The notes beneath the pieces were generated by a model, which was not told the DNA's origin, searched no databases, and saw only the letters and a list, made by a program, of their open reading frames with translations. A stretch of DNA of 64,000 bases from Candidatus Methylomirabilia bacterium. GTDB taxonomy: Bacteria; Methylomirabilota; Methylomirabilia; Rokubacteriales; CSP1-6. A program made the translations under genes and the position numbers. Where the stretch lies: the NCBI GenBank assembly GCA_041496385.1, contig JBGQEL010000012.1, positions 11,409-75,408 of the forward strand, written 5' to 3'. Shown piece by piece: positions 3,570-47,280 of this stretch. Numbering within the stretch: position 1 is the stretch's first letter; each line of letters begins with the position of its first letter.

Positions 3570-5612
3570 ATGCCGTCCTCGGTTTGTCCGCACGACTGCC
3601 CCTCGGCCTGCCGCCTCGTCGTCGAGGTCGAGAACGGGCGCATCACCTCCGTCACGGGCGATCCCGCGCATCCGTTCACGCAGGGCGTGATCTGCGGCAA
3701 GGTGCGCGAGTACGCCGAGCGCGTCCACTCGCCGCTCCGCGTCGCGACGCCGCTGCGGCGCGTCGGCCCCAAGGGGCGCGGCGAGTTCGCCCGCATCTCC
3801 TGGGACGAGGCGATCGGGGAGATCGCCGCGCGCTGGCGGACGATCATCCGCGAGCACGGCGCCGAGGCGATCCTGCCCTTCTCCTACGCGGGCTCGATGG
3901 GGCAGGTGCAGTACCACGCGGGCCACCCGCTCTTTCACGCCCTCGGCGCCTCGCGCCTCGACCGCTCCATCTGCGTCTCGACGGCGTACGCGGGATGGCG
4001 GGCGACGCTCGGCGTGGTCACCGGGAACGACTCCGAGCAGATGGTCGGCGCCGATCTCGTCGTGCTCTGGGGCGTGAACGCCGCCTACTCGACCATCAAC
4101 GTCATGACGCTCGTGAAGCAGGCGCGCGCCCGGGGCGCGCGCGTCGTGGTGATCGATCCCTACCGCACGCCGACGGCGCAGCAGGCCGACGAGCACCTGA
4201 TGGTCCGCCCCGGCACCGACGCCGCGCTCGCGCTCGGCGTCATGCACGTGCTCGTGACGGAGGGCCTCGTCGACCGCGGCTACGTCGAGCGCGCGACGCT
4301 CGGCTTCGACCGGCTCGCCGAGCACGTCAAGGCGTACCCGCCCGAGCGGGTCGCCGCGATCGTGGGGCTCCCCGCCGAGACCGTCGTCGGGTTCGCCCGG
4401 CGCTACGGCGCCTCGCCGCGGACGTTCATCCGCGTCGGCATCGGCGTCTCGCGCCACGACAACGGCGGGATGACCTGCCGGACGCTGGCGTGCCTGCCGG
4501 CGCTCACGGGCGCCTGGGCGGACCCCCACGGCGGCGCGCTCCTGTCCTCGGGCGGCGCCTTCGGCTTCGACTACGGCGTCCTCGAGCGCCCCGACCTGAT
4601 GCCGGGCCCGGCGCCGCGGGTGATCAACATGATCCACCTCGGGCGCGCGCTCACCGACCCGGCGCTGACGCCCCCGGTGAAGGCGCTCTACGTCTACAGC
4701 TCGAACCCCGCGGCCGTGTGCCCGAACCAGAGCCGCGTCCTCGAGGGGCTCGCGCGCGAGGACCTGTTCACCGTCGTCCACGAGCAGGTCCTGACCGACA
4801 CGGCGTTCTACGCCGACGTCGTCCTGCCGGCCACGACGTCCATGGAGCACGAGGACCTCTACCGCTCCTTCGGCCAGTTCACGCTCCAGCTCGCGCGGCC
4901 GGTCCTGCCGCCGCAGGGCGAGGCGCGGTCGAACTGGGAGACGTGCGGCGCGCTCGCCCGGGCGATGGGGGTCGCGCAGGAGCACTACGCGAAGGACGCC
5001 CCCGGGCTCATCCGCGAGTTTCTCGCGCGCGGCGACGCCGCCGTGCGCGCCGTCACCTACGAGCGGCTCCTGCGCGAGGGCTGGGCGCGCCTCGACCTGC
5101 CGCGCCCGTACCTGCCGTTCGCCGACGGGGCGCCGACGCCGTCGGGCAAGGTGGAGCTCTACTCCGAGACACTGGCGAGCCGCGGGCTCCCCCCGCTGCC
5201 GACGTACGTGCCGCTCACGGAGGGGCCGGCGAGCCCCGAGCGGCTCGCGCGCTATCCGCTGCAGTGCATCGTGCCGCCGAACCGCTTCTTCCTGAATTCG
5301 TCGTTCAGCCAGTCGGAGCGGCTGCGCCGGCGGCAGAAGGCGCCGACGGTGATGCTCGCGGCCGAGGACGCCGCGTCGCGCGGTATCCGCGCCGGCGACG
5401 CCGTCCGCGTGGAGAGCGCGCGGGGCGCCGCGCGCTTCACGGCGGAGGTGACCGACGCGACGCGCCCCGGCGTCGTCGTGGTCGAGGGGATCTGGTGGCA
5501 TCGCTTCCACCCGGGCGGGCGCGGCGTCAACGTCCTCACCGACGACCGGGTGACGGACATGGGCGGCGGTCCCGCGTTCCATTCCAACCTCGTCGAGGTC
5601 GCGCGTGTCTAG
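3570..5612 (+). CDS. molybdopterin (Mo-bisPGD) oxidoreductase family protein, cytoplasmic (no Tat signal)
   Basis: 680 aa; N-terminal 4Fe-4S motif C-x2-C-x3-C (CPHDCPSAC) followed by a downstream Cys; molybdopterin oxidoreductase domain organisation; no twin-arginine motif. Substrate not assignable. Confidence 0.75.
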   Translation: MPSSVCPHDCPSACRLVVEVENGRITSVTGDPAHPFTQGVICGKVREYAERVHSPLRVATPLRRVGPKGRGEFARISWDEAIGEIAARWRTIIREHGAEAILPFSYAGSMGQVQYHAGHPLFHALGASRLDRSICVSTAYAGWRATLGVVTGNDSEQMVGADLVVLWGVNAAYSTINVMTLVKQARARGARVVVIDPYRTPTAQQADEHLMVRPGTDAALALGVMHVLVTEGLVDRGYVERATLGFDRLAEHVKAYPPERVAAIVGLPAETVVGFARRYGASPRTFIRVGIGVSRHDNGGMTCRTLACLPALTGAWADPHGGALLSSGGAFGFDYGVLERPDLMPGPAPRVINMIHLGRALTDPALTPPVKALYVYSSNPAAVCPNQSRVLEGLAREDLFTVVHEQVLTDTAFYADVVLPATTSMEHEDLYRSFGQFTLQLARPVLPPQGEARSNWETCGALARAMGVAQEHYAKDAPGLIREFLARGDAAVRAVTYERLLREGWARLDLPRPYLPFADGAPTPSGKVELYSETLASRGLPPLPTYVPLTEGPASPERLARYPLQCIVPPNRFFLNSSFSQSERLRRRQKAPTVMLAAEDAASRGIRAGDAVRVESARGAARFTAEVTDATRPGVVVVEGIWWHRFHPGGRGVNVLTDDRVTDMGGGPAFHSNLVEVARV

Positions 5613-7041
5613 CACGCCGGCGGCGGGCTACCTCAAGACGCTCTTCCTGCACCCGCCCTCGTACGAGGGCTTCGACGGCGGAGCCGGCTCGCGCTATCAG
5701 GCGCGCCGCGAGATCCGCTCCTTCTGGTACCCGACCTGGCTCGCGCAGCCCGCGGCCCTGGTGCCGGGCTCGCGCCTCGTGGACGCGCCGCCCGGCGGCC
5801 TCGGGCTCGAGGACGTGCTCCCGCTCGCGCGCGAGTACGAGCTCGCGGTGCTCCACACGAGCACGCCGTCCTTCGCCTACGACGTCAAGGTCGCCGAGGC
5901 GCTCCGCGGCGAGAACCCGAAGCTCCGGATCGGCTTCGTCGGCGCGCACGTGGCCGTGCACCCCGAGCAGGCGCTGGCCGCGTCCGACGCAATCGAGTTC
6001 GTCGCGCGCAACGAGTTCGACTTCACGATCCAGGAGGTCGCCCAGGGCCGGCCGCTCGCCGAGGTCGCCGGCCTCTCCTATCGCTGGGACGGCGCGATCC
6101 GCCACACGCCGGATCGCGCGATGCTCGAGAACATGGACGCGCTGCCGTTCGTCGTGGACGTCTACCGGCGCGATCTCACGATCGACCAGTACTTCATCGG
6201 CTACCTCCTGCACCCGTACGTGTCGCTCTACACGGGCCGGGGGTGCCGCTCGAAGTGCACGTTCTGCCTCTGGCCGCAGACCGTCGGCGGCCACCGCTAC
6301 CGGACGCGCTCGGTCGAGCACGTGCTCGCGGAGATCGAGCGCGCCACGCGCTACTTCCCGCAGGTGCGCGAGTACTTCTTCGACGACGACACCTTCACCG
6401 ACGACCTCCCGCGCGCCGAGGCGATCGCGCGGGGCCTGGGGCGGCTCGGCGTCACGTGGTCGTGCAACGCCAAGGCGAACGTGCCGCGCGAGACCCTGCG
6501 GGTGCTGCGGGACAACGGCCTCCGGCTCCTGCTCGTGGGGTACGAGTCGGGCGACCCGCGGATCCTGAACAACGTCAAGAAGGGGGTCCGTCTCGACGTC
6601 GCGCGGCGATTCACGCGCGACTGCCGCGACCTCGGCATCACGATCCACGGCACCTTCATCCTGGGCCTGCCCGGCGAGACGCGCGAGACGATCGAGCGGA
6701 CGATCCGCTTCGCCTGCGAGATCGACCCGCACACGGTCCAGGTGTCGATCGCGGCGCCCTATCCGGGGACGGCGATGTACCGCGAGGCGATGGACCACGG
6801 CTGGCTCAGCGGCGACGGGCTCGTGGACGGTCGCGGCCTCCAGCAGAGCGCGCTCAGCTACCCCGACCTGCCGAGTGCCCAGATCTTCGACGCGGTCGAG
6901 CGCTTCTACAAGCGCTTTTACTTCCGTCCCCGGAAGATCGGGGCGCTCACTTGGGAGATGCTGCGCGACCGCCGGATGCTCGCGCGGAGGCTTCGCGAGG
7001 GCGTCGAGTTCTTCCGCTTCCTGGCGCAGCGGTCGCGCTAG
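5605..7041 (+). CDS. hpnJ: hopanoid biosynthesis-associated B12-binding radical SAM protein HpnJ
   Basis: 478 aa; GTG start overlapping upstream stop by 8 nt (GTGTCTAG). N-terminus YLKTLFLHPPSYEGFDGGAGSRYQARREIRSFWYPTWLA and radical-SAM cysteines CRSKCTFC match the HpnJ family. Confidence 0.8.
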   Translation: MSSTPAAGYLKTLFLHPPSYEGFDGGAGSRYQARREIRSFWYPTWLAQPAALVPGSRLVDAPPGGLGLEDVLPLAREYELAVLHTSTPSFAYDVKVAEALRGENPKLRIGFVGAHVAVHPEQALAASDAIEFVARNEFDFTIQEVAQGRPLAEVAGLSYRWDGAIRHTPDRAMLENMDALPFVVDVYRRDLTIDQYFIGYLLHPYVSLYTGRGCRSKCTFCLWPQTVGGHRYRTRSVEHVLAEIERATRYFPQVREYFFDDDTFTDDLPRAEAIARGLGRLGVTWSCNAKANVPRETLRVLRDNGLRLLLVGYESGDPRILNNVKKGVRLDVARRFTRDCRDLGITIHGTFILGLPGETRETIERTIRFACEIDPHTVQVSIAAPYPGTAMYREAMDHGWLSGDGLVDGRGLQQSALSYPDLPSAQIFDAVERFYKRFYFRPRKIGALTWEMLRDRRMLARRLREGVEFFRFLAQRSR

Positions 7042-7064
7042 CCTCGACGATCCTGCGCGTCGCG

Positions 7065-7278
7065 CCGGCGGGCGCGGGGCGGGAGGGGTCGTCGGACCAC
7101 GCGGCTCGCGTTCGCTGCCCGGCTGTGACTGGGCTCCATCCGGGCGCGTGGGGCCCGTCGCCCGGGGCGGGAACGAGTCCGATCAACCCCTCCCGCCCCG
7201 CGCCCGCCGGCGCGGCAATCGGGGTCGTCGGACCACGCGGCTCGCGTCCGCTACCCGGCAGCGGCTGGACCACGCGGG
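7065..7278. repeat. composite repeat in convergent intergenic region: 24-nt perfect inverted repeat plus 39-nt direct repeat (2 mismatches) plus a third partial copy
   Basis: IR ccggcgggcgcggggcgggagggg (7065-7088) with its exact reverse complement (7187-7210). DR ggggtcgtcggaccacgcggctcgcgtNcgctNcccggc at 7085-7123 and 7221-7259. The core ggaccacgcgg recurs at 7268-7278. Confidence 0.6.
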
Positions 7279-7284
7279 TGGAGT

Positions 7285-8481
7285 TCAGCGGTCGCGAGAG
7301 GTCGCGACGGGGCGGGGCGTTTCCCGGGCCGCGAGCCCCAGCAGGTGCGCGGCGACGTCGCGGGCGGCGTGCGGCCGTCGGAGGGCCCGCATCGCCACTC
7401 GGAGGCCGTCGAGCGCACCGGGCCCGGCCAGCGCCCGGCGCAGCACCTGGGCGAGCTCGGCGGGCGTGCGGGCGGCGAGCGCGATGCCGGCCTGGACGGC
7501 GAACGCCTCGTTGCGCGCCTCGTGGCCGGGGAGCGAGCCGAAGCAGACGATGGGAAGCTCGGCGGCCAACGCCTCGGCCAGCGAGAGGCCGCCCGCCTTG
7601 GTGACGAGGAGGTCCGCGGCGGCCATGAGCTCTCGGACGTTGTCCGCGTAGCCGAGGATCCGAATCCGGCCGGACGCCCCGACCGCCGCGCGCAGCTGCC
7701 GCGCGAGGTCGGCGTCCACGCCGGTGACGACCAGGGCCTCGAGCGGCTGCGGGAGCTCGCGCACGACTCGGGTCACCTCGGGCAGACGCCCGAGCCGGGT
7801 CGCGGCGCCCGCCATCACGAGGACGACCGGCGCGCGGGGGTCGAGGCCGAGCTCGGCCCGCGCCCGCGCCCGGTCGTGCGGCACGGCGAACTCCGCGCCC
7901 ACCGGAATGCCCGTCGCGACGGCGCGCGTCGGGGGCAGCCCGAGCGCCACCAGCGCCTCGCGGATCGACTCCGCCGGCACGTAGTGGGCGTCGGCGTCCG
8001 GGTGGATCCACTGGGCGTGGACCACGAAGTCGCTGAAGACGAGCCCGTAGGGCGGGATCGCGACGCCGCGCGAGCGGAGCAAGCCGAGGGCGCCGGCGGG
8101 TGTGGGGTGCGTGCACGCCACGCAATCCGGGCGCTCGGCGTCGAGGAGCCGGGCGAGCTTCGCGCTGCCGAGCCGGTTCGCGTCCAGCGTGAGTCGCGAC
8201 GACGGCGTCAGGCGGTCGCCGACGCGGTAGGCGAGGTCCCACAGGATGGGCGCCCGGTGGAGCATCGCCTCGTAGATCCGCTGGCTCCAGCGTTCGAACG
8301 CGGGATGCACGAGCTCGCGGAAGTGGTCCACGATCTTCGTCGAGGCGCCGACCGCGCGGAAGGCGGCGTCGAGCGCGGCGGCGGCGGCGTGGTGGCCCGA
8401 GCCGAAGCCCGCGGTGAGGATGAGGGCGCGCGGCGCGCGGCCCCCTCCGGCGACGCGCGCCGGAGCGAGCTCCGCGCTCAT
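7285..8481 (-). CDS. glycosyltransferase, MGDG-synthase/UgtP-like (GT28 family)
   Basis: C-terminal 398 codons of the 1406-aa ORF 7285..11505; the rest of that ORF is an out-of-frame overlap of hpnN and MIPS. ATG 8481-8479 overlaps the hpnN stop (ATGA). N-terminal LILTAGFGSGHH..AA.AL as in MGDG synthase/UgtP; C-terminal GT28 region (LLVTKAGGLSLAEALAAELPIV). Confidence 0.65.
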   Translation of the reverse strand: MSAELAPARVAGGGRAPRALILTAGFGSGHHAAAAALDAAFRAVGASTKIVDHFRELVHPAFERWSQRIYEAMLHRAPILWDLAYRVGDRLTPSSRLTLDANRLGSAKLARLLDAERPDCVACTHPTPAGALGLLRSRGVAIPPYGLVFSDFVVHAQWIHPDADAHYVPAESIREALVALGLPPTRAVATGIPVGAEFAVPHDRARARAELGLDPRAPVVLVMAGAATRLGRLPEVTRVVRELPQPLEALVVTGVDADLARQLRAAVGASGRIRILGYADNVRELMAAADLLVTKAGGLSLAEALAAELPIVCFGSLPGHEARNEAFAVQAGIALAARTPAELAQVLRRALAGPGALDGLRVAMRALRRPHAARDVAAHLLGLAARETPRPVATSRDR

Positions 8482-11228
8482 GGGCGCGAGGCGAGGGGGG
8501 CGGACTCGAGGTCGGGCGCGGCGGGTACCGGGCGGGGGCGCTGGCGCAGCAGCACGGGCAGCACGATCAGCGAGGCGACGAGGCTCGTGGCGCTGCCGAG
8601 CGTGAGCAGCAGACCCAGGCCGAAGATGCCGCGGTGGTCGGCGACCATGAGGCTGCCGAAGCCCACGACGTTCGAGAGCCCGTTGACCAGGACCGCCATC
8701 ACCGTGCTGCGGGCGATGAGCGGCCCGCCGTGGTCGCGCCCTTCCATGTAGCGCATCACGATGTTCAGCCCGTACTCGGCGGCGGCGCCGAGGATGAGCG
8801 GGAGCCCGAAGACGTTGCCCATGTTGAACTTCAGGTCGAAGAAGTACATCAGGCCGAAGGTCCAGAGCATCCCGAGGCCCAGCGGCAGGAGCGCCAGGAA
8901 CGTCTCGCGCACGCGGCGCAGCGCGAGGAAGGTGACGAGCGTGACGAGGAGCACCGCGTACACGGTGCCCTCCTTGTACGAGCGCTCCATGAAGCGGATC
9001 GCCTCGAAGGTGACGACGGGCGTGCCGGTCACCTCGGGGTCGACCGAGCGCAGCTCGGTGACGAAGCGGGTCGCGCCCTCGCGGTCCCAGATGTCCACCG
9101 CCGGCTCGATCTGGAGGAGGAACCGCCCCTTGTCGCTGATGAACTTGCGCCGGATCTCCGGCGGCACGTCCTTGAGTCCGATGGTCCGCGGCGCGAGGTT
9201 CCCCTGGAGCCGCTGGAAGCTCTTGACGAAGTCGCCGTAGATCTGGTTCTGCAGCACCGTGAGCGCCGGCTCGCTCACCTCCGGATCGGTCTGGCGCAGG
9301 CGGATCATGAGCCGGTCGATCTCTTCGTTGAGATTCTGCAGGCGCAGCTTCGTGTCGCCCTCCGGGGCCTCGTTCGCGGCGATCCCGAAGCGCCGCCGCA
9401 GCGTCTCGAGCGCGGTGACGAGCCGCTCCCGGTCCACGGGCGTCGCGCGCCCCACGCGCACCGACGCGACGATGGGCGCGAAGTCGCGGATGATCTTCAT
9501 CTTCTCGGCCTGCTCCTCGGGGATCAGCAGGAGGGCCGAGTCGACCCCGGAGACCGTCGGGAGCCGGGCGAACGCCGCCTGTTTCCGGCGGAGCTCGTCG
9601 AGCGTGTCGGCGCTCGCCAGGGCCGTGAAGGCCGAGCGCCCCGCGGTGGCCAGGATGCGTTTCTCCCAGGCGACCGATTCGGTGCCGCGGGCCTGGAGGT
9701 TGAGCAGGTTGTAGTCGAACTGGATGTACATCAGGCCCCAGAGCGACACGCCGGTGATCACGGCCGCGAACGCGAGCACCGACTTCGGATAGCGCACGAG
9801 CCGCTCGACGAGCGGGACGTGCACGCGCTCGAGCGCCAGCGCGCGGGGGATCGCGTTCCCGGAGCGGTTCGCGTGCCGGCGATCCACGAGCACGAGGACC
9901 GCGGGGAAGACGGTCATCATCGAGACCCACGAGAGGAGGATCGCCGTGCCGGCCACGAAGCCGAGCTCCTGGACGCCGCGGAACTCGGTGAGACCGAGCA
10001 CGTAGAAGGTGCCCGCGGCGGTCACCGCGCCGAGCAGCATGCCGGGGCCGCTGCGCGCCGCCGTGATCTCGATCGCCTCCTTGAGGTTCCGGCCGAGGAA
10101 CAGCTCCTCCTCGTAGCGGAAGAGGAAGTAGATGCCGTAGTCGATCCCGATGCCGATGACGATCGAGATGAACATGACCGAGAAGAGCGAGAGGTGACCG
10201 ATGACGAGCGTCGCCGCGCCCAGCGACCAGCACAGACTCACCGTGAGCACGAGCAGCATCAGCAGAGGCTTGCCGACCCGGAGGAAGGCGGCGAGCAGGA
10301 GGCCGAGGATCAGCGCGAAGGCGAGGATCGTCGCGTTCTCGCTGTCGCGGAAGGCCGCCGTCATCTCGTCGTTGGCGAGCGCGGGCTTGCCCGTGACCCC
10401 GACCTCCACGTTCGGGAACTCGCGCTTCAGCGACGCGATCACGGCGCGGACGCCCTCGATCGCGCGCTGGTCGCCCGTGAAGCTGCCGCGCTCGGTCTTG
10501 GGTTCGGCGAGGATGAAGAGGAGCCGTTGGTCGTCGGAGAGGAAGTAGCCGGCGCCCGGGTTGTCGGCCCCGTCGACCGAGAAGAAGGTGCCCCAGGGCG
10601 AGCGGTACGGCGCGGGCCGGTCGAGCCGCGCCGAGATCTGCCCGACGAGGTCTTCGACGAACTTGAAATCGAGCGAGGCCTTGCCGTCGTTGAGACCGAG
10701 GTCGATGAAGCTGGTGACGAACGCGTTCGCGACCTGGGTCGCGACGCCGTCGACGAGCTGGTCCAGGGTAGGGCGGCCCGCGAAGGCCTCCACGAAGTCC
10801 TGGTAGTCGAAGATCTTGTCGCGGATCGCCTCGAGCCTCTCCTTCGAGAGGTAGAGGAGGCCGCGTCCCTCGAACTGCTTGGGGTCGATGCGATACGCCA
10901 CGCGCGCGAGCGGCACCTGATGGACACGCAGCTCGCGGGCGAGGCGCTGCGCGTAGACCGTCGCCTCGGGCAGCGACGGCGCCTGGACGACGATGGCGAG
11001 ATCGTCGAGCTGGCCGAACTCCTTCTCGTACTGCCTGTACTTCTCGACGTACGGCTGGCCGGACGGCAGCAGCCGGAGGGCCGAGGTCTGGAAGGTCATG
11101 GTCGTCAGCGTGTAGACGACCGAGACGACGGCGAGAGCCAGCGCCAGGCCGAGCGTCAGCCAGGGCCGGGCGCACGACAGCCGAACAAGGCGCCGGAGCG
11201 GACGGCCGATGCTTCGGGCGACCGCCAC
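8478..11228 (-). CDS. hpnN: hopanoid biosynthesis-associated RND/MMPL transporter HpnN
   Basis: 916 aa, two ~6-TM bundles with large periplasmic loops, MMPL/RND architecture; GTG start directly abutting the MIPS stop (TAGGTG); sits in an hpn gene neighbourhood. Confidence 0.8.
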   Translation of the reverse strand: MAVARSIGRPLRRLVRLSCARPWLTLGLALALAVVSVVYTLTTMTFQTSALRLLPSGQPYVEKYRQYEKEFGQLDDLAIVVQAPSLPEATVYAQRLARELRVHQVPLARVAYRIDPKQFEGRGLLYLSKERLEAIRDKIFDYQDFVEAFAGRPTLDQLVDGVATQVANAFVTSFIDLGLNDGKASLDFKFVEDLVGQISARLDRPAPYRSPWGTFFSVDGADNPGAGYFLSDDQRLLFILAEPKTERGSFTGDQRAIEGVRAVIASLKREFPNVEVGVTGKPALANDEMTAAFRDSENATILAFALILGLLLAAFLRVGKPLLMLLVLTVSLCWSLGAATLVIGHLSLFSVMFISIVIGIGIDYGIYFLFRYEEELFLGRNLKEAIEITAARSGPGMLLGAVTAAGTFYVLGLTEFRGVQELGFVAGTAILLSWVSMMTVFPAVLVLVDRRHANRSGNAIPRALALERVHVPLVERLVRYPKSVLAFAAVITGVSLWGLMYIQFDYNLLNLQARGTESVAWEKRILATAGRSAFTALASADTLDELRRKQAAFARLPTVSGVDSALLLIPEEQAEKMKIIRDFAPIVASVRVGRATPVDRERLVTALETLRRRFGIAANEAPEGDTKLRLQNLNEEIDRLMIRLRQTDPEVSEPALTVLQNQIYGDFVKSFQRLQGNLAPRTIGLKDVPPEIRRKFISDKGRFLLQIEPAVDIWDREGATRFVTELRSVDPEVTGTPVVTFEAIRFMERSYKEGTVYAVLLVTLVTFLALRRVRETFLALLPLGLGMLWTFGLMYFFDLKFNMGNVFGLPLILGAAAEYGLNIVMRYMEGRDHGGPLIARSTVMAVLVNGLSNVVGFGSLMVADHRGIFGLGLLLTLGSATSLVASLIVLPVLLRQRPRPVPAAPDLESAPLASRP

Positions 11229-12335
11229 CTACTCTTCGCCGGCGATGAACCGCTCGAGGCGCGTGTGGGCGACGTCGTCGGTCCACTGCTCCGGTGGCGA
11301 CTTCATCAGGTAGGCTGACGGCGCGAGGAGCGCCCCCTTGAGCCCGCGGTCCAGCGCCGTCTGGCAGAGGCGAATCGCGTCGATGACGACGCCGGCGGAG
11401 TTCGGCGAGTCCCACACTTCGAGCTTCAGCTCGATGTTGATCGGCTGGTCGCCGAAGCCGCGGCCCTCGAGGCGGATGTGGGCCCACTTGCGGTCCTCGA
11501 GCCACGGCACGTAGTCGCTCGGGCCGATGTGCACGGCGTCGGCCGGGAGCTCGTGACCCAGCTGCGAGCGGACCGAGTCGGTCTTCGAGATCTTCTTCGA
11601 GACGAGTCGGTCGCGGTCGAGCATGTTGTAGAAGTCGGTGTTGCCGCCGAAGTTGAGCTGGCTCGTGCGCTCGAGCCGGACGCCGCGGTCCATGAAGAGC
11701 TTGGTGAGGACGCGGTGGATGATGGTGGCGCCGACCTGCGACTTCACGTCGTCACCGACGACGGGCAGCCCGCGCTCCTCGAAGCGCCTGCGCCAGTAGC
11801 TCTCGCGCGCGATGAAGACGGGGATGCAGTTGACGAACGCGCAGCCCGCTTCGAGGACCTGCTCGACGTACCACTTGGTCGCCATCTCGCTGCCGACCGG
11901 CAGGAAGTTCACGACGACGTTCGTCCGCGTCTCGCGGAGGATGCCGACGATGTCGGCCGTCGAGCCGGGCGCCTTCTTGATCATCTGCGAGAGGTAGTGG
12001 CCGAGGCCGTCGTGCGTCATCCCGCGCTGGACGGGCACGCCGAGGTGCGGCACGGTCGCGAAGCGCACCGTGTTGTTGGGCGGCTGGAAGATGGCCTCGC
12101 CGAGGTCCTTGCCCACCTTGCGCTCGTCGATGTCGAACGCGGCGGAGAACTCGATGTCGCCGACGTGGTAGGCGCCGACCCTCGGATGCATGAGACCCGG
12201 AATGAACTGGTTCTCGGGGGCGTTCCGGTAGTAGTGGACACCCTGGACGAGCGACGATGCGCAGTTGCCGACACCCACGATGGCGACTCGAACGGATCCC
12301 ACGGGCGCCTCCCTCGGCAGGAATACTTTTCGCAC
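11229..12335 (-). CDS. ino1: myo-inositol-1-phosphate synthase (inositol-3-phosphate synthase)
   Basis: 368 aa; N-terminal [16 protein letters not shown] Rossmann motif, NFGGNTDF and surrounding catalytic-region motifs typical of prokaryotic/archaeal MIPS. Confidence 0.8.
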
Positions 12336-12382: not shown

Positions 12383-13579
12383 TCACGGCGCCCCCAGGCT
12401 CGCGCGGAACCGGTCGCGGATCTGGCGCGGCGTGTGCGGGATCCGCGGGACATCCACCTCCTCCGGCGTGACCTTCGCCAGGACGAAGCCCGGCCCCGGC
12501 CCGGCCAGCGCCGCCCGCACCGCGGCGGTGAGCGCGTCGGGCGTCGCGACCGCCGTCGCGACACAGCCCGCGGCGCGCGCGATCCGGTCGAGCCGCACCT
12601 CGCGCGAGGGGGAGGGCTGGTTGCCGGTCGAGCCGTAGACCTCGTTGTCGAAGACGACGTGCACGAAGCGAGGCGGGCGCAGGCTGCCGATCGTCCCGAG
12701 GATGCCGAGGTTCATCAGGAGGTTGCCATCGCCGTCGAAGACGACCGTCCGCTTCTCGGGCCGGACGAGCGCGAGCCCCAGGCCGATCGCCGAGGCGAGG
12801 CCCATCGAGCCGATCATGTAGAAGTTCTGCGGCCGGTCGGCGAGCGAGAAGGACTCGCGGCAGATGTAGCCGTTCGCGTGGATCACGGGCTCGTCGCGGA
12901 GCTGCCCGATGGCGACGCCGAGCGCGTCGCGCCGCGACATCACCGGCCGCAACTCCTCGTCCGCCCCCGCCTGTCCCGAATGAATGCCTGCCACCGGGGC
13001 CGGGGTGGTGGTCGGGGGCGGCCCAGTGGGCGTGTCGTTACCGGCAACGGGGCCGCCCCCCCCCACCCCCCCGGCCCCCCTCACGGCGCCAAGATCGAGG
13101 ACTCCGGGGGGAACGAGGATCGCGACCGGTGCTTCGCGCGCGTCCATTTCGGCGCGCGCCCACTGCAACAGCTCCTCGACTCCCTCTCGGGCGAGGACCC
13201 GATGGGGGATGCCGTGGAGCTCGAGAAGCTGCGGCGTGATCCGGCCCGTCAGGATGTGCTCGGGCGCGTCCTTGCCCTCGAAGCCGCGCCACGTGATCAG
13301 CAGCAGGACGGGGAGGCCGTACATGAGGGAGAGCGAAGCCAGGGCGTTCCCGCACGTGCCGAGCCCGGAGTTCTGCATCAGCACCACGGGCCGCCGCCCG
13401 CCGAGCCACGCGCCCGCGGCGAGCCCGATCGCGGCGTCCTCGCGGGCCGCGGCCACGTACGGCGCGCGCGGGCGGCGCTCGAGCGCCGCGACGAGGTCCT
13501 CGATCAACGAGCAGGGAACGCCGGTGAAGAAATCGAATCCGTGACGCTCGAGCAGCGCGGCGAGCTGGGCGCCCGACAC
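12383..13579 (-). CDS. TPP-dependent decarboxylase, sulfopyruvate/phosphonopyruvate decarboxylase family (fused two-domain form with Gly/Pro/Thr-rich linker)
   Basis: 398 aa; N-terminal TPP pyrimidine-binding domain and C-terminal domain with the GDG-N diphosphate-binding motif (VVFDGDGNLLMNLG), no central domain. This is the ComDE/Ppd architecture. The domains are joined by GAGGVGGGGPVAGNDTPTGPPPTTTPAPVAG. Confidence 0.6.
   Translation of the reverse strand: MSGAQLAALLERHGFDFFTGVPCSLIEDLVAALERRPRAPYVAAAREDAAIGLAAGAWLGGRRPVVLMQNSGLGTCGNALASLSLMYGLPVLLLITWRGFEGKDAPEHILTGRITPQLLELHGIPHRVLAREGVEELLQWARAEMDAREAPVAILVPPGVLDLGAVRGAGGVGGGGPVAGNDTPTGPPPTTTPAPVAGIHSGQAGADEELRPVMSRRDALGVAIGQLRDEPVIHANGYICRESFSLADRPQNFYMIGSMGLASAIGLGLALVRPEKRTVVFDGDGNLLMNLGILGTIGSLRPPRFVHVVFDNEVYGSTGNQPSPSREVRLDRIARAAGCVATAVATPDALTAAVRAALAGPGPGFVLAKVTPEEVDVPRIPHTPRQIRDRFRASLGAP
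13055..13080. repeat. homopolymeric tract C9-A-C7-GG-C6 inside the TPP-decarboxylase CDS (encodes GGVGGGGP on the minus strand)
   Basis: Plus-strand gccccccccc a ccccccc gg cccccc. Reverse-complement translation gives GAVRGAGGVGGGGPVAG, matching the ORF. Confidence 0.7.
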
Positions 13580-15533: not shown

Positions 15534-16328
15534 TCACGGCAGCACCGAGCCCAAGAAGTAGTCCCAGACCAGGATCAGGACCGAGGAGAGCACGACCGCG
15601 TCCGTCGTCGCCTTGGCGACGCCCTCGGCGCCGTGCCCGACGTTGAAGCCCTTGTAGGTGCAGACCCACATGACGATCACGCCGAAGGACAGCGACTTCC
15701 AGAAGCCGGTCATGATGTCCTTCATGTCGACGAAGGTCTGCATCTCGCCGAAGTACGTGCCCTGGGACAGCCCCAGCAGCTCGACGCCCACGAGGTAGCC
15801 GCCGAAGATGCCGACCGTGTCGAAGATTGCCGTCATCAGCGGGAAGGTCACGATGCCGGCGAGGATGGACGGCGCCACGAGATAGCGCATGGGGTTGAGC
15901 GCCATGACGGTGAGCGCGTCGATCTGCTCGGTGATGCGCATGATCCCGATCTCGGCGGTGAGCGCCGAGCCGGCGCGGCCCGTCACCATGAGCGCCGCGA
16001 GCACGGGACCCAGCTCGCGGATGATCGAGAGCGCGACGGCCGGGCCGAGGTACGCCTCGGAGCCGAAGCGGACGAGCGTCAGGTAGACCTGGAGCCCGAG
16101 GACCATGCCGGTGAAGGAGCCGGTCAGGAGGATGATCAGGAGCGATCGGTAGCCGACGTAGTGGATCCGGTCGATGAACGCCCGGAGCTTGAACGGCGGA
16201 GTCAGGAGCGCGCCCAGCGCCTCGCCCAGGAAGCTGCCGAAGCGACCGAGCGCCTCGACGATCGCGATCGCCCAGCGGCCGAGGGCGTCGAGCGGGGCCA
16301 GCGCCAGCGGGAGCGGCCGCTCAGTCAT
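15534..16328 (-). CDS. MlaE-like ABC transporter permease
   Basis: C-terminal 264 codons of ORF 15534..17684, from ATG 16328 (MTERPLPL...). MlaE/Ttg2B-type permease pattern (ITEQIDAL.VMALNP). ATG overlaps the shc stop (ATGA). Confidence 0.75.
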   Translation of the reverse strand: MTERPLPLALAPLDALGRWAIAIVEALGRFGSFLGEALGALLTPPFKLRAFIDRIHYVGYRSLLIILLTGSFTGMVLGLQVYLTLVRFGSEAYLGPAVALSIIRELGPVLAALMVTGRAGSALTAEIGIMRITEQIDALTVMALNPMRYLVAPSILAGIVTFPLMTAIFDTVGIFGGYLVGVELLGLSQGTYFGEMQTFVDMKDIMTGFWKSLSFGVIVMWVCTYKGFNVGHGAEGVAKATTDAVVLSSVLILVWDYFLGSVLP

Positions 16329-18244
16329 CGCTGGACGCTGCGGTAGACCCCGAGCGCCCAGAGGGGGAAGTACTTCGCGTAGAGGTGGTACTTGAGGTAG
16401 AAGACGCGCGGGAATCCCGTGCCGTTCCAGAGCCGATCGTCCCAGGAGCCGTCGGGCTGCTGCGCCTGCAGGAGATAGAGGACGCCGCGCTCGATGGCGC
16501 GGCCGCCCGTCCGGCCCGCGGCGAAGAGCGCCAGGAGCGCCCAGGCGGTCTGGCTCGGCGTCGACTCGCCGCTCCCGGCCAGCTCGGCGTCGTCGTAGCT
16601 CTCGCAGGTCTCGCCCCAGCCGCCGTCGGGGTTCTGTTGCCGCTCGAGCCAGCGGACCGCCCGCTGCACGTACTCGTGGCGCAGATCCTCGCCGATCGCC
16701 CTCAGGCCGCGGAGCACCGACCACGTTCCGTAGATGTAGTTGACGCCCCAGCGGCCCTCCCAGGGCCCGTCGTGCCGCTGCGCGTGGCGCAGAAAGTGGA
16801 TCGCGCGCCGCGCCGGCTCGAAGTCCGTGCCGTAACCCAGCGTGCCGAGGAGCTCGAGCCCGCGCCCCGTGAGGTCCTCCGTCGAGGGGTCGAGCAGCGC
16901 TCCGTGATCGGCGAAGGGGATGTTGTTCAGATAGAGGCGGTTGTTGTCGGCGTCGAACGAGCCCCAGCCGCCGTCCTCGCCCTGCATGCCGAGGAACCAG
17001 CCGAGGCCGAGCTCCTTCGCCGTCTGGGCGGCGTCGCCGTCGAGACCCCGCACCTTCTCCAGCGCCATCAGGACCATCGCCGTGTCGTCGAGGTCGGGAT
17101 AGAAGTCGTTGCGGTACTGGAACGCCCAGCCGCCGGGTTTCACGTGCGGCCGCTTCACCTGCCAGTCGCCCGGCACGAGCACCTGACGGTCGATGAGCCA
17201 CTCGGCGGCGCGCCGCAGCGTCGGGTCCTCGGGCGCGACTCCGCTCTCGACCAGCGCGTTGACGGTGAGCGCCGTGTCCCAGACGGGCGACGGGCAGGGC
17301 TGATAGTGAATCTCCTCGCCCTCCTCGACCGCGAGCGCCTCGATCTCCTTGATCTGCCCCATGACCAGCGGGTGATCGTCGGGGTAGCCCAGCAGCCGCA
17401 TCGCCAGGATCGAGTTGGCCATCGCCGGATAGATGCCGCCCAGGCCGCCGGGGACGGCGAGCCGCTCCTCGAGCCAGAGACGCGCCGCGTCGACCGCCCG
17501 CTTCCGGAGCGGGCGCTTCGTGAACCGCTCCCAGATCTTCAGGCCGTCGTCCACCGAGACGAAGAAGTTCTTCCAGAAGAGCTTGCGCCAGCTGAAGGGC
17601 TCCGGCACCCGCGGGAAGCGCAGGCTCGTCCGCTCGCGCGAGTCCGGCCAGAGCTCGTCGAGCGAGAGGTGGGGCGGGAGCCACTTCACCGGCTTGCGGT
17701 CCATGATGATCAGGAGGGGCACGATGACGGTCCGCGACCAGTACGAGACCTCGTAGATATTGAAGAGGAAGAAGGGGCGCGGCAGCAGCATGATCTCGAC
17801 CGGCATCGCGGGCACGCCGTTCCAGTCGTACTCGCCGAAGAGCGCCAGCAGGATCTTGGTGAAGACGTCGCTCTTCACGGGCCCGCCCATGTCGTGGATC
17901 CGCCCGCGCGCCGCCACCATCGCGGGGTCGTCCACGCCGACACCGGCCAGCTTCATCGCGAAGTAGGCCTTGATGGTCGCCGACAGATTCGACGGGCCGT
18001 CCTCGAAGAGGTTCCAGCCGCCGTCCGGGAGCTGGCGGCGGCGGAGGTAGTGGACGGCCTTGGCCTCGCGCTTGCGGTCCACACGGTCGATCAGGTGGCA
18101 GAGCAGGAGGAACTCGGACGTGATGGTCGTGTTGGCCTCGAGCTGGCCGACCCAGTGACCGTCGGGGGCCTGATGCGCCAGGAGCCAGGACTGGGCGCGC
18201 GCGATCGCGTCGGTGAGGGCCGTCACGAGGGCTGATGGTAACAT
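16325..18244 (-). CDS. shc: squalene-hopene cyclase
   Basis: 639 aa; DxDDTA catalytic motif (DLDDTAMVLMAL) and multiple QW repeats; N-terminus MLPSALVTALTDAIARAQSWLLAHQAPDGHW. Confidence 0.9.
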   Translation of the reverse strand: MLPSALVTALTDAIARAQSWLLAHQAPDGHWVGQLEANTTITSEFLLLCHLIDRVDRKREAKAVHYLRRRQLPDGGWNLFEDGPSNLSATIKAYFAMKLAGVGVDDPAMVAARGRIHDMGGPVKSDVFTKILLALFGEYDWNGVPAMPVEIMLLPRPFFLFNIYEVSYWSRTVIVPLLIIMDRKPVKWLPPHLSLDELWPDSRERTSLRFPRVPEPFSWRKLFWKNFFVSVDDGLKIWERFTKRPLRKRAVDAARLWLEERLAVPGGLGGIYPAMANSILAMRLLGYPDDHPLVMGQIKEIEALAVEEGEEIHYQPCPSPVWDTALTVNALVESGVAPEDPTLRRAAEWLIDRQVLVPGDWQVKRPHVKPGGWAFQYRNDFYPDLDDTAMVLMALEKVRGLDGDAAQTAKELGLGWFLGMQGEDGGWGSFDADNNRLYLNNIPFADHGALLDPSTEDLTGRGLELLGTLGYGTDFEPARRAIHFLRHAQRHDGPWEGRWGVNYIYGTWSVLRGLRAIGEDLRHEYVQRAVRWLERQQNPDGGWGETCESYDDAELAGSGESTPSQTAWALLALFAAGRTGGRAIERGVLYLLQAQQPDGSWDDRLWNGTGFPRVFYLKYHLYAKYFPLWALGVYRSVQR

Positions 18245-18271
18245 GTTGACTCGTCGAGTGAAAATGCTCTC

Positions 18272-46308: not shown

Positions 46309-47280
46309 GTGGAAAACATGGGACGCATCTTCCGCCAGCTGCTCCTGACCGAGCCGTACCTGTTCACCGGCGGCGTCTATGACCCGCTGGGCGCCCAGCT
46401 CGCCGAGCGCACGGGCATGAAGTCGATCTATCTCAGCGGGTATTCGATGGCGATGGCCAACGGCTGGCCGGACATGGGGTTCCTCACCCAGACCGAGGTG
46501 ACGCGCATCGCCTCGATGGTCGCGAGCGCGACGAGCCTGCCCATCATCGCCGACGCCGACGACGGCTACGGCAACGCGCTCTCCACGATCCGGACGGTGC
46601 AGGAGTACGTCAAGACGGGCGTCGCGGGCATCCACCTCGAGGACCAGGTGTTCCCCAAGCGCTGCGGCCACATCGCGGGCAAGACGATCGTGAGCTTCGA
46701 GGAGGCGCTGGGCAAGTACCGCGCCGCCGTCGACACGCGCAACCGGCTCGACCGCGACTTCGTCATCATCGCGCGGACGGACGCGTACGGCGCCGTCGGC
46801 GGGAGCATGGAGGAGGCGATCCGGCGTGGCCGCGCCTACGCCGACGCGGGCGTGGATCTCGTCTGGGCCGAGCTGTCGAACGCCTCGCGCGAGCCGGCGA
46901 TCGCCTTCGCGAAGGCGATGCGCGAGACGCATCCCGCGCTGCCGCTGGCGTTCAACTACTCGTCCTCGTTCCGCTGGCACCAGGACCCGAACCCGCTCAG
47001 CTTCAAGGAGCTCGGCGACCTGGGCTACAAGTTCATCTTCATCACGCTCTTCGCGGCGCACGCGGCGACGTACGCGGTGTGGAACGCCATGGAGGAGCTG
47101 GTGCGCGACCAGGAGCAGGCGCAGTGGCGGCTCGAGAAGACGAAGGTCGGGCACCCGACCGAGAGCCATCACGTGATGGCGCGAGTCGCCCATTTCCAGG
47201 AGCTCGAGAAGCGGTACATTCCCGGCACCGCCGAGCGGATCAAGTCCTCGGCCGGCTTCGACGACAAGCGCCTGCACTAG
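46309..47280 (+). CDS. isocitrate lyase/PEP mutase superfamily lyase (2-methylisocitrate lyase-like)
   Basis: 323 aa; LEDQVFPKRCGHIAGK with the K-R-C-G-H lyase signature (not the KTNS of true PEP mutase); GTG 46309 / ATG 46318 downstream of GAGGAGGA. Confidence 0.75.
   Translation: MENMGRIFRQLLLTEPYLFTGGVYDPLGAQLAERTGMKSIYLSGYSMAMANGWPDMGFLTQTEVTRIASMVASATSLPIIADADDGYGNALSTIRTVQEYVKTGVAGIHLEDQVFPKRCGHIAGKTIVSFEEALGKYRAAVDTRNRLDRDFVIIARTDAYGAVGGSMEEAIRRGRAYADAGVDLVWAELSNASREPAIAFAKAMRETHPALPLAFNYSSSFRWHQDPNPLSFKELGDLGYKFIFITLFAAHAATYAVWNAMEELVRDQEQAQWRLEKTKVGHPTESHHVMARVAHFQELEKRYIPGTAERIKSSAGFDDKRLH

Follow-up and report, generated by a model that had tools for sequence, protein, structure and literature searches.

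How does HpnJ, the radical SAM enzyme that completes bacteriohopanetetrol (BHT) cyclitol ether, obtain its substrate in a genome region where hpnI and hpnK are missing? This question is raised by a hopanoid gene cluster in a 64,000-nucleotide stretch of DNA (hereafter, the window; contig JBGQEL010000012.1, positions 11,409 to 75,408, forward strand) of Candidatus Methylomirabilia bacterium, order Rokubacteriales (assembly GCA_041496385.1). In the window, hpnJ faces a gene for a glycosyltransferase of the GT28, or monogalactosyldiacylglycerol (MGDG) synthase, family. Here we propose, with slightly better than even confidence, that this GT28 enzyme and a polysaccharide deacetylase of carbohydrate esterase family 4 (CE4) make BHT glucosamine for HpnJ and so replace HpnI and HpnK.

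In the canonical pathway, HpnI, HpnK and HpnJ act in this order, in three steps, and in Alphaproteobacteria the three genes are reported to occur together or not at all (PMC12583986). The function of HpnJ is described as known only from a deletion mutant of B. cenocepacia (PMC13459092).

The window genome (denoted G000) is a metagenome-assembled genome (MAG) of 167 contigs, with completeness of 100 and contamination of 3.94; the window lies on contig C12, and statements of absence for this genome apply to the 167-contig assembly. The GC content of the window is about 72%; its real genes were chosen using third-position GC together with family scans, and 55 window open reading frames (ORFs; 7 + 48) were covered by the Pfam scan. 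Throughout, HpnI, HpnK and HpnJ were called positive over the curated cut-offs (310 bits for TIGR03472, 232.6 for TIGR03473 and 577.6 for TIGR03471, respectively), the thresholds for stating that there was no match were E<=1e-50 for HpnJ and E<=1e-40 for HpnI, and a GT28 homolog was counted as present at E<=1e-20. The argument turns on the following features.

5605..7041, + strand: hpnJ copy 1, B12-binding radical SAM protein, 478 amino acids (aa); TIGR03471, 788.5 bits against 577.6.
7285..8481, - strand: GT28/MGDG-synthase-family lipid glycosyltransferase, 398 aa, clade W; PF06925 and PF04101.
8478..8481, - strand: ATGA overlap of the hpnN-like stop codon (TGA) and the GT28 start codon (ATG), read directly, cgcccATGAgcgcg.
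C143:8570-9307, strand n/a: orphan CE4 ortholog of the window genome, 69% identical to GT28-linked CE4.

The first-pass annotation of this DNA, made from the letters alone, had noted hpnJ without hpnI or hpnK, and this holds for the window: the TIGR03471 alignment of the product spans profile positions 2-471 of 472, and genome-wide family searches gave no match to HpnI or HpnK on contig C12. In Pfam, the protein matches PF04055 (Radical_SAM, 76.1 bits) and, weakly, the B12-binding PF02310 (21.9 bits, under the 32.1 cut-off); a C-x3-C-x2-C (CxxxCxxC) cluster motif is visible in the translation. It is presumed to be the enzyme that contracts the glucosamine ring to the cyclitol.

GT28 is, as had also been claimed, the only glycosyltransferase among the 55 Pfam-scanned ORFs of the window, and PF06925 is represented in the whole genome by this single gene. 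The reported overlap of its start with the hpnN stop was confirmed at 8478-8481 and suggests that translation of GT28 is coupled to that of the hpnN-like gene. The protein matches PF06925 (MGDG_synth) over the entire profile (positions 1-169 of 169; 87.2 bits, cut-off 25) and PF04101 (Glyco_tran_28_C) with 29.4 bits (cut-off 22). Its top NCBIfam match, the UgtP-type NF010135, scores 215.6 bits, under the cut-off of 500; judged by this match, it is a relative of UgtP and not an ortholog. A profile of 19 homologs searched against the PDB retrieved UgtP (9wde, 214.7 bits), MGD1 (4wyi, 167.6 bits) and, more weakly, MurG. The AlphaFold2 model (pLDDT 86.4, pTM 0.87) has the GT-B fold with two Rossmann-like domains, and its top Foldseek matches are MGD1 structures (4wyi/4x1t; E 1e-20; TM 0.82-0.85, target-normalised), followed by MurG. 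All 74 invariant columns of the 19-sequence alignment, the N-terminal G-x-G-H included, are kept in the window protein, which looks active. It has no match to TIGR03472 (HpnI), and its GT-B fold is unlike GT2/GT21, so that, if it performs the task of HpnI, it is an analogue and not a member of the HpnI family. We consider it a candidate BHT N-acetylhexosaminyl transferase.

The best evidence for a functional link between GT28 and HpnJ is the repeated adjacency of their genes in different arrangements. We analyzed a sample of 121 genomes of the phylum, including the window genome; these are close relatives, mostly of one family, and the counts describe the sample and are not independent trials. 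The cross-tabulations of HpnJ, HpnI, HpnK and GT28 presence and the adjacency counts were made by hand from the search tables; four genomes flagged as unpublished (G029, G047, G058 and G100) are counted in the tallies, and no claim depends on them alone. Of the 56 genomes with both GT28 and hpnJ, 24 (23 without G029; hand count), from 10 genus codes, carry them on one contig within 3.5 kb of each other. Among short loci, hpnJ is at most 1.5 kb from GT28 in 7 of 29, and among 19-kb regions from 20 genomes, it is within reach of GT28 in 11, with no shc, hpnH or hpnN nearby. A second draw of loci (from genome_contigs, with the 19-sequence GT28 alignment as the query and the closest taken first) yielded 80 loci, 72 of the Rokubacteria type and 8 from Firmicutes; the GT28 relatives are labelled Rokubacteria/Methylomirabilota. 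Rokubacteria-type GT28-CE4(-hpnJ) contigs are also filed under MAGs of other taxa (L087, L096, L103, L107, L113, L116 and L140, in MAGs labelled Nitrosocosmicus, Verrucomicrobiia, Gemmatimonadales, Acidoferrum, Limnocylindria and Binatia), likely through mis-binning.

Three arrangements were found. In arrangement (a), seen in many genera, a GT28-CE4 pair converges on hpnJ (25 of the 54 Rokubacteria-type loci with at least 4.5 kb downstream, with CE4 in between in 23). In arrangement (b), hpnN-GT28 converges on hpnJ, as in the window, its congeners G055 and G101, and locus L083. In arrangement (c), GT28 is flanked by copD and by hpnJ, from which it diverges (G072, L089 and L091); the same copD/hpnJ-PGDH-MPI locus in G027 contains no GT28. 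In addition, the main hpn cluster of G002 is syntenic with the window, but there hpnN faces hpnJ directly, and GT28-CE4 is located elsewhere. Given these three arrangements, GT28 must have come beside hpnJ at least three times, each time differently. In the genomes with two hpnJ genes (G000, G035, G117 and G084), one copy is beside hpnI and the other is beside GT28; a glycosyltransferase gene tends to be found near each of the copies.

In the relatives, GT28 and hpnJ are separated by a gene whose product, about 235 aa long, is a polysaccharide deacetylase (PF01522 in Pfam, 114-119 bits); this gene starts at or near the GT28 stop. Using tblastn, CE4 was detected beside GT28 in 22 of 29 short loci and 16 of 20 extended loci, and of the 67 Rokubacteria-type loci with at least 900 nucleotides (nt) downstream, 56 have it as the gene immediately after GT28. 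The ortholog of the window genome contains the motifs TFDDG, H-x3-H and RPPWG, which we take to be of the NodB type. Its N-terminus consists of one hydrophobic helix followed by four arginines, which, by the positive-inside argument, weakly suggests a cytoplasmic catalytic domain. In the window genome, the orphan CE4 gene on C143 is flanked by histidine kinase genes; CE4 is also kept in G055 and G101 (82% and 78% identity). The presence of this partner, which the first-pass annotation had not anticipated, is the strongest clue that the transferred sugar is N-acetylglucosamine (GlcNAc). Firmicutes relatives of GT28 (31-37% identity) include several with CE4 close by and none with hpnJ.

Across the phylum sample, HpnJ is over the cut-off in 64 of 121 genomes, HpnI in 16 and HpnK in 8, that is, HpnJ is found 4 times as often as HpnI and 8 times as often as HpnK. 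A GT28 homolog is present in 69 genomes (60/72 in family f1, 6/8 in f2, 1/1 in f3 and 1/6 in f9), and CE4 orthologs are present in 70. HpnI over the cut-off is missing from 50 of the 64 HpnJ-positive genomes, and 47 of these 50 carry GT28; conversely, 8 of the 11 HpnJ-positive genomes without GT28 have HpnI. HpnK over the cut-off is missing from 56 of the 64, and among the 67 genomes whose HpnJ is credible, CE4 and HpnK are both missing from only 2 (G061 and G082, 86% and 90% complete; hand count). Phylogenetic profiling against SHC was dropped, SHC being detected in 114 of the 121. HpnJ is either useless in most of these soil bacteria or fed by another glycosyltransferase and another deacetylase. 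The first-pass annotation had left a choice between cyclitol-ether genes split across loci and a different, lipid-type glycosyltransferase that supplies the sugar step. The gene trio, the adjacency and the 47/50 co-occurrence lead us to favour the different glycosyltransferase; this suggestion now has order-wide neighbourhood and co-occurrence data behind it, all of it evidence from gene context.

The alternative of split loci has to be considered against the remainder of the window genome, where a genome-wide search, proposed along with the original annotation, located HpnI and no canonical HpnK. The finding named there as counting against the annotation, hpnI and hpnK elsewhere in the genome, is thereby borne out by half. 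The relevant genes are the following.

C43:14117-15214, strand n/a: canonical HpnI; TIGR03472, 416.5 bits against 310; PF13506 (Glyco_transf_21).
C43:11376-14123 (L006:5377-8124), - strand: second HpnJ, a 915-aa frame directly adjoining HpnI; TIGR03471, 761.6 bits.
C16:47462-48490, - strand: YdjC-family gene beside ROK-kinase and Zn-dehydrogenase genes; PF04794, 172.7 bits.

The C43 locus has the order hpnI, hpnJ-fusion, hpnL-like (PF03706, LPG_synthase_TM) and a second hpnN-like gene. Its HpnJ is fused in frame to a C-terminal region of about 400 aa that contains a CDP-alcohol phosphatidyltransferase domain (PF01066, 30.5 bits; DIPP-synthase-like NF041135, 63.9 bits), and G083 and G035 have a fusion that can be aligned with it over the full length. 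In family f2 (L073-L075), the CDP-alcohol transferase-like gene is separate and stands in one string with hpnL and hpnJ; both the fusion and this string may reflect inositol-phosphate or similar head-group chemistry on hopanoids. Similar hpnI-hpnJ loci without hpnK are found in G111, G116, G083, G035 and G117. The closest likeness of the C43 locus is to loci of other genera (G083 and G035), and it may be an accessory acquisition or, given the 3.94% contamination, belong to another population.

No protein of the window genome is over the HpnK cut-off; the best match, at C16:47465-48199, scores 66.2 bits (plus 22.7 for a C-terminal part) against 232.6. Of the 72 other family-f1 genomes, 70 yield comparably weak HpnK-like matches, with or without hpnJ, and the C16 gene of the YdjC family is probably a housekeeping sugar deacetylase. 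Neither is there an HpnB (TIGR03469) over the cut-off in this genome, the best match, with 43.6 bits, being the HpnI gene itself. Both congeners (98% and 95% complete) have a single window-type hpnJ beside GT28 and no HpnI match; therefore, HpnI does not explain the window hpnJ. The idea of split loci is thus borne out insofar as HpnI is encoded on C43, and fails in that this HpnI sits beside its own HpnJ, that the congeners manage without HpnI and that HpnK is absent.

In a maximum-likelihood tree of 40 GT28 sequences, the window protein, those of the two congeners and one G072 copy form a clade (denoted clade W; support 96/99), all encoded beside hpnJ and none with an adjacent CE4. The GT28 genes of arrangements (b) and (c) are of this W type. 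A small clade comprises G063, G070 and G079 (91-95% complete; loci L014/L041, L012/L039 and L016); CE4 and HpnJ seem to be jointly missing in these genomes. The remaining clades are CE4-coupled, and the deep branching among the groups is not resolved. W-type and CE4-coupled copies occur together in three genomes (G072, L089 with L095, and L091 with L094). This coexistence and the tree mark the window GT28 as belonging to a distinct clade and speak against its being a plain ortholog of the CE4-coupled type.

In a quick tree of 33 HpnJ sequences, a long-branch clade (0.83) comprises the three proteins encoded in hpnI-hpnK-hpnJ operons, which could have been acquired from another phylum. These are the textbook operons, followed by an hpnN-like gene, which occur in a minority of Rokubacteria (L063, L064 and L065, that is, G093, G084 and G050). 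All other HpnJ are intermixed and closely related, whether encoded beside hpnI, beside GT28-CE4, as a fusion or alone, and the window HpnJ is 86% identical to that of G101. The tree gives no hint of a different substrate for the GT28-linked copies and fits a single substrate type.

With the gene identities, arrangements and distributions established, we infer which sugar is donated, what accepts it and in what order the steps occur, taking GT28 as the putative glycosyltransferase partner of HpnJ in this lineage. GT28 would move GlcNAc from UDP-GlcNAc to the terminal hydroxyl of BHT at the cytoplasmic face of the inner membrane; the membrane-anchored, NodB-type CE4, encoded in trans on C143, would then deacetylate the product to BHT glucosamine, the ring of which HpnJ would contract to yield BHT cyclitol ether. 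GT28 and CE4 would accordingly be non-orthologous replacements of HpnI and HpnK and a module of the same kind as HexS-HexD of Clostridioides difficile (see below). In the window genus, the GT28 gene appears to have been relocated to the last position in the shc-mla-ino1-hpnN operon, where it would be translationally coupled to the transporter gene, with the deacetylase gene left elsewhere.

Several observations weigh against this proposal, and some of them favour its main rival, an explanation that we consider unlikely although it deserves to be taken seriously, namely, that GT28 is an ordinary UgtP/HexS-type synthase acting on diacylglycerol or monoglycosyl-diacylglycerol, making, together with CE4, an aminohexosyl glycerolipid unrelated to hopanoids. 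Equally doubtful in our estimate is its corollary, that the proximity to hpnN and hpnJ merely represents clustering of membrane-lipid genes. The closest characterized relatives of GT28 use glycerolipid acceptors, either diacylglycerol (UgtP and MGD1) or hexosyl-diradylglycerol (HexS), and GT28-CE4 pairs occur without hpnJ in Paenibacillus-type Firmicutes. Within the phylum sample, an HpnJ match is missing from 13 of the 69 genomes with GT28; about 9 of these 13 keep CE4, several being 90-99% complete, and G063, G070 and G079 have neither CE4 nor HpnJ. The window operon also includes Mla phospholipid-transport and inositol-phosphate synthase genes, as would a general lipid operon. Furthermore, of the 56 genomes with GT28 and hpnJ, 32 do not have them adjacent, and the two genes are convergent or divergent, never co-transcribed. 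Co-occurrence with hopanoid synthesis is uninformative because SHC is nearly universal (114/121), and counts over close kin, mostly of one family, overstate independence. The topology of CE4 is only weakly indicated, and a periplasmic CE4 would be incompatible with a cytoplasmic radical SAM step. Finally, clade W, to which the window protein belongs, lacks an adjacent CE4 and coexists with the CE4-coupled type, so that the functions of the two may differ. Against the glycerolipid explanation, it leaves HpnJ without a glycosyltransferase in 47 of the 50 genomes that lack HpnI; inherited synteny alone is insufficient to account for three GT28-hpnJ arrangements involving two GT28 clades; and the trio of genes copies the logic of HpnI-HpnK-HpnJ.

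Two further explanations appear improbable. Under one of these, the C43 HpnI serves both HpnJ proteins, a housekeeping deacetylase replaces HpnK, and GT28 is a bystander. An HpnI of 416.5 bits is indeed present in the genome, as are a YdjC-family gene and a CE4 gene away from the window, and Acidobacteria of subdivisions SD1 and SD3 are likewise described as having hpnI and hpnJ without hpnK (PMC5462960). However, the C43 HpnI adjoins its own HpnJ copy, the two congeners have hpnJ and GT28 without an HpnI match, and the C43 locus, which resembles those of other genera, may be accessory or a contaminant. The other explanation, to which we assign a similarly small probability, invokes a different acceptor: GT28 might add a sugar to BHT glucosamine, to the cyclitol ether or to an inositol lipid, or else HpnJ might act on a glucosaminyl glycerolipid and produce a cyclitol-bearing glycerolipid. 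In its favour are the lack of an adjacent CE4 in clade W, which occurs beside a CE4-coupled paralog in three genomes; the inositol-1-phosphate synthase gene that abuts hpnN; and the CDP-alcohol phosphatidyltransferase domain fused to the second HpnJ. However, the window genome has a single GT28 and still keeps CE4, and the intermixing of GT28-linked and HpnI-linked HpnJ, at 70-86% identity, argues for the same substrate. No lipid of the kind this explanation calls for is known to us, although no search aimed at one was made.

BHT cyclitol ether and other composite bacteriohopanepolyols serve as biomarkers, and their producers are predicted via hpnI, hpnK and hpnJ. If GT28 and CE4 feed HpnJ as proposed, surveys based on hpnI and hpnK would undercount the producers of these lipids, an abundant uncultured soil phylum would join the likely producers, and there would be a tangible example of a lipid head-group module changing its acceptors from glycerolipids to hopanoids; such a route would also bear on the Acidobacteria with hpnI and hpnJ and no hpnK. 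The proposed route names two genes that are directly testable. A recent survey of hopanoid genes, in the passages searched, does not mention GT28 or CE4, and the open-access literature, among the matches listed, yielded no account of HpnJ having a GT28 or CE4 partner.

The remaining genes around hpnJ and GT28 in the window, and the spacer between these two, are listed below.

3570..5612, + strand: molybdopterin oxidoreductase gene; PF00384, PF01568, PF04879.
7042..7284, no strand: 243-nt spacer separating the stops of hpnJ and GT28, which converge; no gene in the ORF list.
8478..11228, - strand: hpnN-like lipid transporter of the resistance-nodulation-division (RND) type (HAE3/MMPL), 916 aa; TIGR03480, NF052374, PF03176, sterol-sensing domain.
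11229..12335, - strand: myo-inositol-1-phosphate synthase (MIPS) gene, abutting the hpnN start; TIGR03450, 514 bits (cut-off 638), PF01658.
12383-13579, - strand: gene for a phosphonopyruvate-decarboxylase-like thiamine pyrophosphate (TPP) enzyme; TIGR03297, 289 bits (cut-off 312.5).
46318-47280, + strand: gene of the phosphoenolpyruvate (PEP)-mutase/isocitrate-lyase family, 33 kb from the phosphonopyruvate-decarboxylase-like gene.

The end of the molybdopterin oxidoreductase gene overlaps the start of hpnJ by 8 nt, hpnJ being the last gene of this plus-strand pair, and the pair recurs in the window genus, in G002 and in loci L068, L082 and L083. A scan of positions 6900-7450 detected no consensus terminator or promoter in the 7042..7284 spacer; the sole terminator-like site in the scanned range, at 6900-6915, is within hpnJ. 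On the minus strand, the string runs from shc (16325-18247) through mlaE, mlaF, mlaD, mlaC, the phosphonopyruvate-decarboxylase-like gene, MIPS and hpnN to GT28, the last gene. The 8478-11228 product scores 563 bits with TIGR03480 (cut-off 751.85) and 362 bits with NF052374 (cut-off 1100); HpnN is its best full-length family match, and the gene lies within the hpn cluster. The MIPS-hpnN pair recurs in G002, G055, L083 and G111, and the G111 copy is directly beside hpnI-hpnJ. The phosphonopyruvate-decarboxylase-like gene, located between mlaC and MIPS, is lacking in the operons of G055 and G002, which are syntenic in other respects.

In two loci from other genera (L050:1541-6887 and L069:2987-7223), hpnJ, apart from the main hpn cluster, follows a conserved string of genes encoding a GT2, a MacB-like ABC permease and ATPase, and, directly upstream of hpnJ, a PMT_2 (ArnT-like GT-C) protein. 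This string could encode a further candidate for transferring sugars to hopanoids or lipid A.

Compared with the known systems, the proposed pathway shares with the canonical one the final enzyme, HpnJ, the association with shc, hpnH, hpnG and hpnN and, in the relatives of the window genome, the joint encoding of a glycosyltransferase, a de-N-acetylase and a radical SAM protein; by analogy, the glycosyltransferase-deacetylase-HpnJ trio mirrors HpnI-HpnK-HpnJ. The two differ in the enzymes that precede HpnJ, which are a GT2/GT21-type HpnI and a YdjC-type HpnK in the canonical pathway, and a GT-B/GT28 enzyme and a CE4 deacetylase of the NodB type in Rokubacteria; moreover, the window cluster itself is without a deacetylase gene. 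The all-or-none pattern of Alphaproteobacteria also contrasts with the distribution described here, where HpnJ far outnumbers HpnI and HpnK. SD1 and SD3 Acidobacteria resemble the C43 locus in having hpnI-hpnJ without hpnK, and the authors of the respective study considered these bacteria probably unable to make the cyclitol ether (PMC5462960); in contrast, the gene context in Rokubacteria offers CE4 as a candidate substitute deacetylase.

A closer parallel to the GT28-CE4 pair is provided by C. difficile, where an aminohexosyl glycolipid is reported to require HexS, of the MGDG-synthase family, the polysaccharide deacetylase HexD and the MprF-like HexF, and where an N-acetylated lipid intermediate accumulates without HexD (PMC10128005); GpgSDF of Pseudomonas aeruginosa is described as an analogous module (PMC12713373). 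Like these systems, the Rokubacterial relatives encode an MGDG-synthase-family glycosyltransferase followed by a polysaccharide deacetylase (56/67 loci). Unlike in these systems, the window deacetylase is unlinked, the 243 nt past GT28 holding no gene; HexS acts on hexosyl-diradylglycerol and has no radical SAM partner; and no gene for an MprF-like (LPG_synthase_TM) flippase was detected beside GT28 in the window or the scanned loci, the genome instead encoding HpnL/PF03706 on C43. That a HexS-like amino-glycolipid module of GT28 and CE4 was recruited from glycerolipids to hopanoids, with BHT as the new acceptor, strikes us as an evenly balanced proposition. UgtP/YpfP and plant MGD1 share with the window protein the family, the GT-B fold, the N-terminal G-x-G-H and the C-terminal nucleotide-sugar motifs, whereas the window protein belongs to a Rokubacteria-specific subfamily that falls under the UgtP equivalog cut-off. 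The context differs as well: Rokubacterial GT28 is encoded among hopanoid and deacetylase genes, and not in a setting of lipoteichoic acid or thylakoid lipid synthesis.

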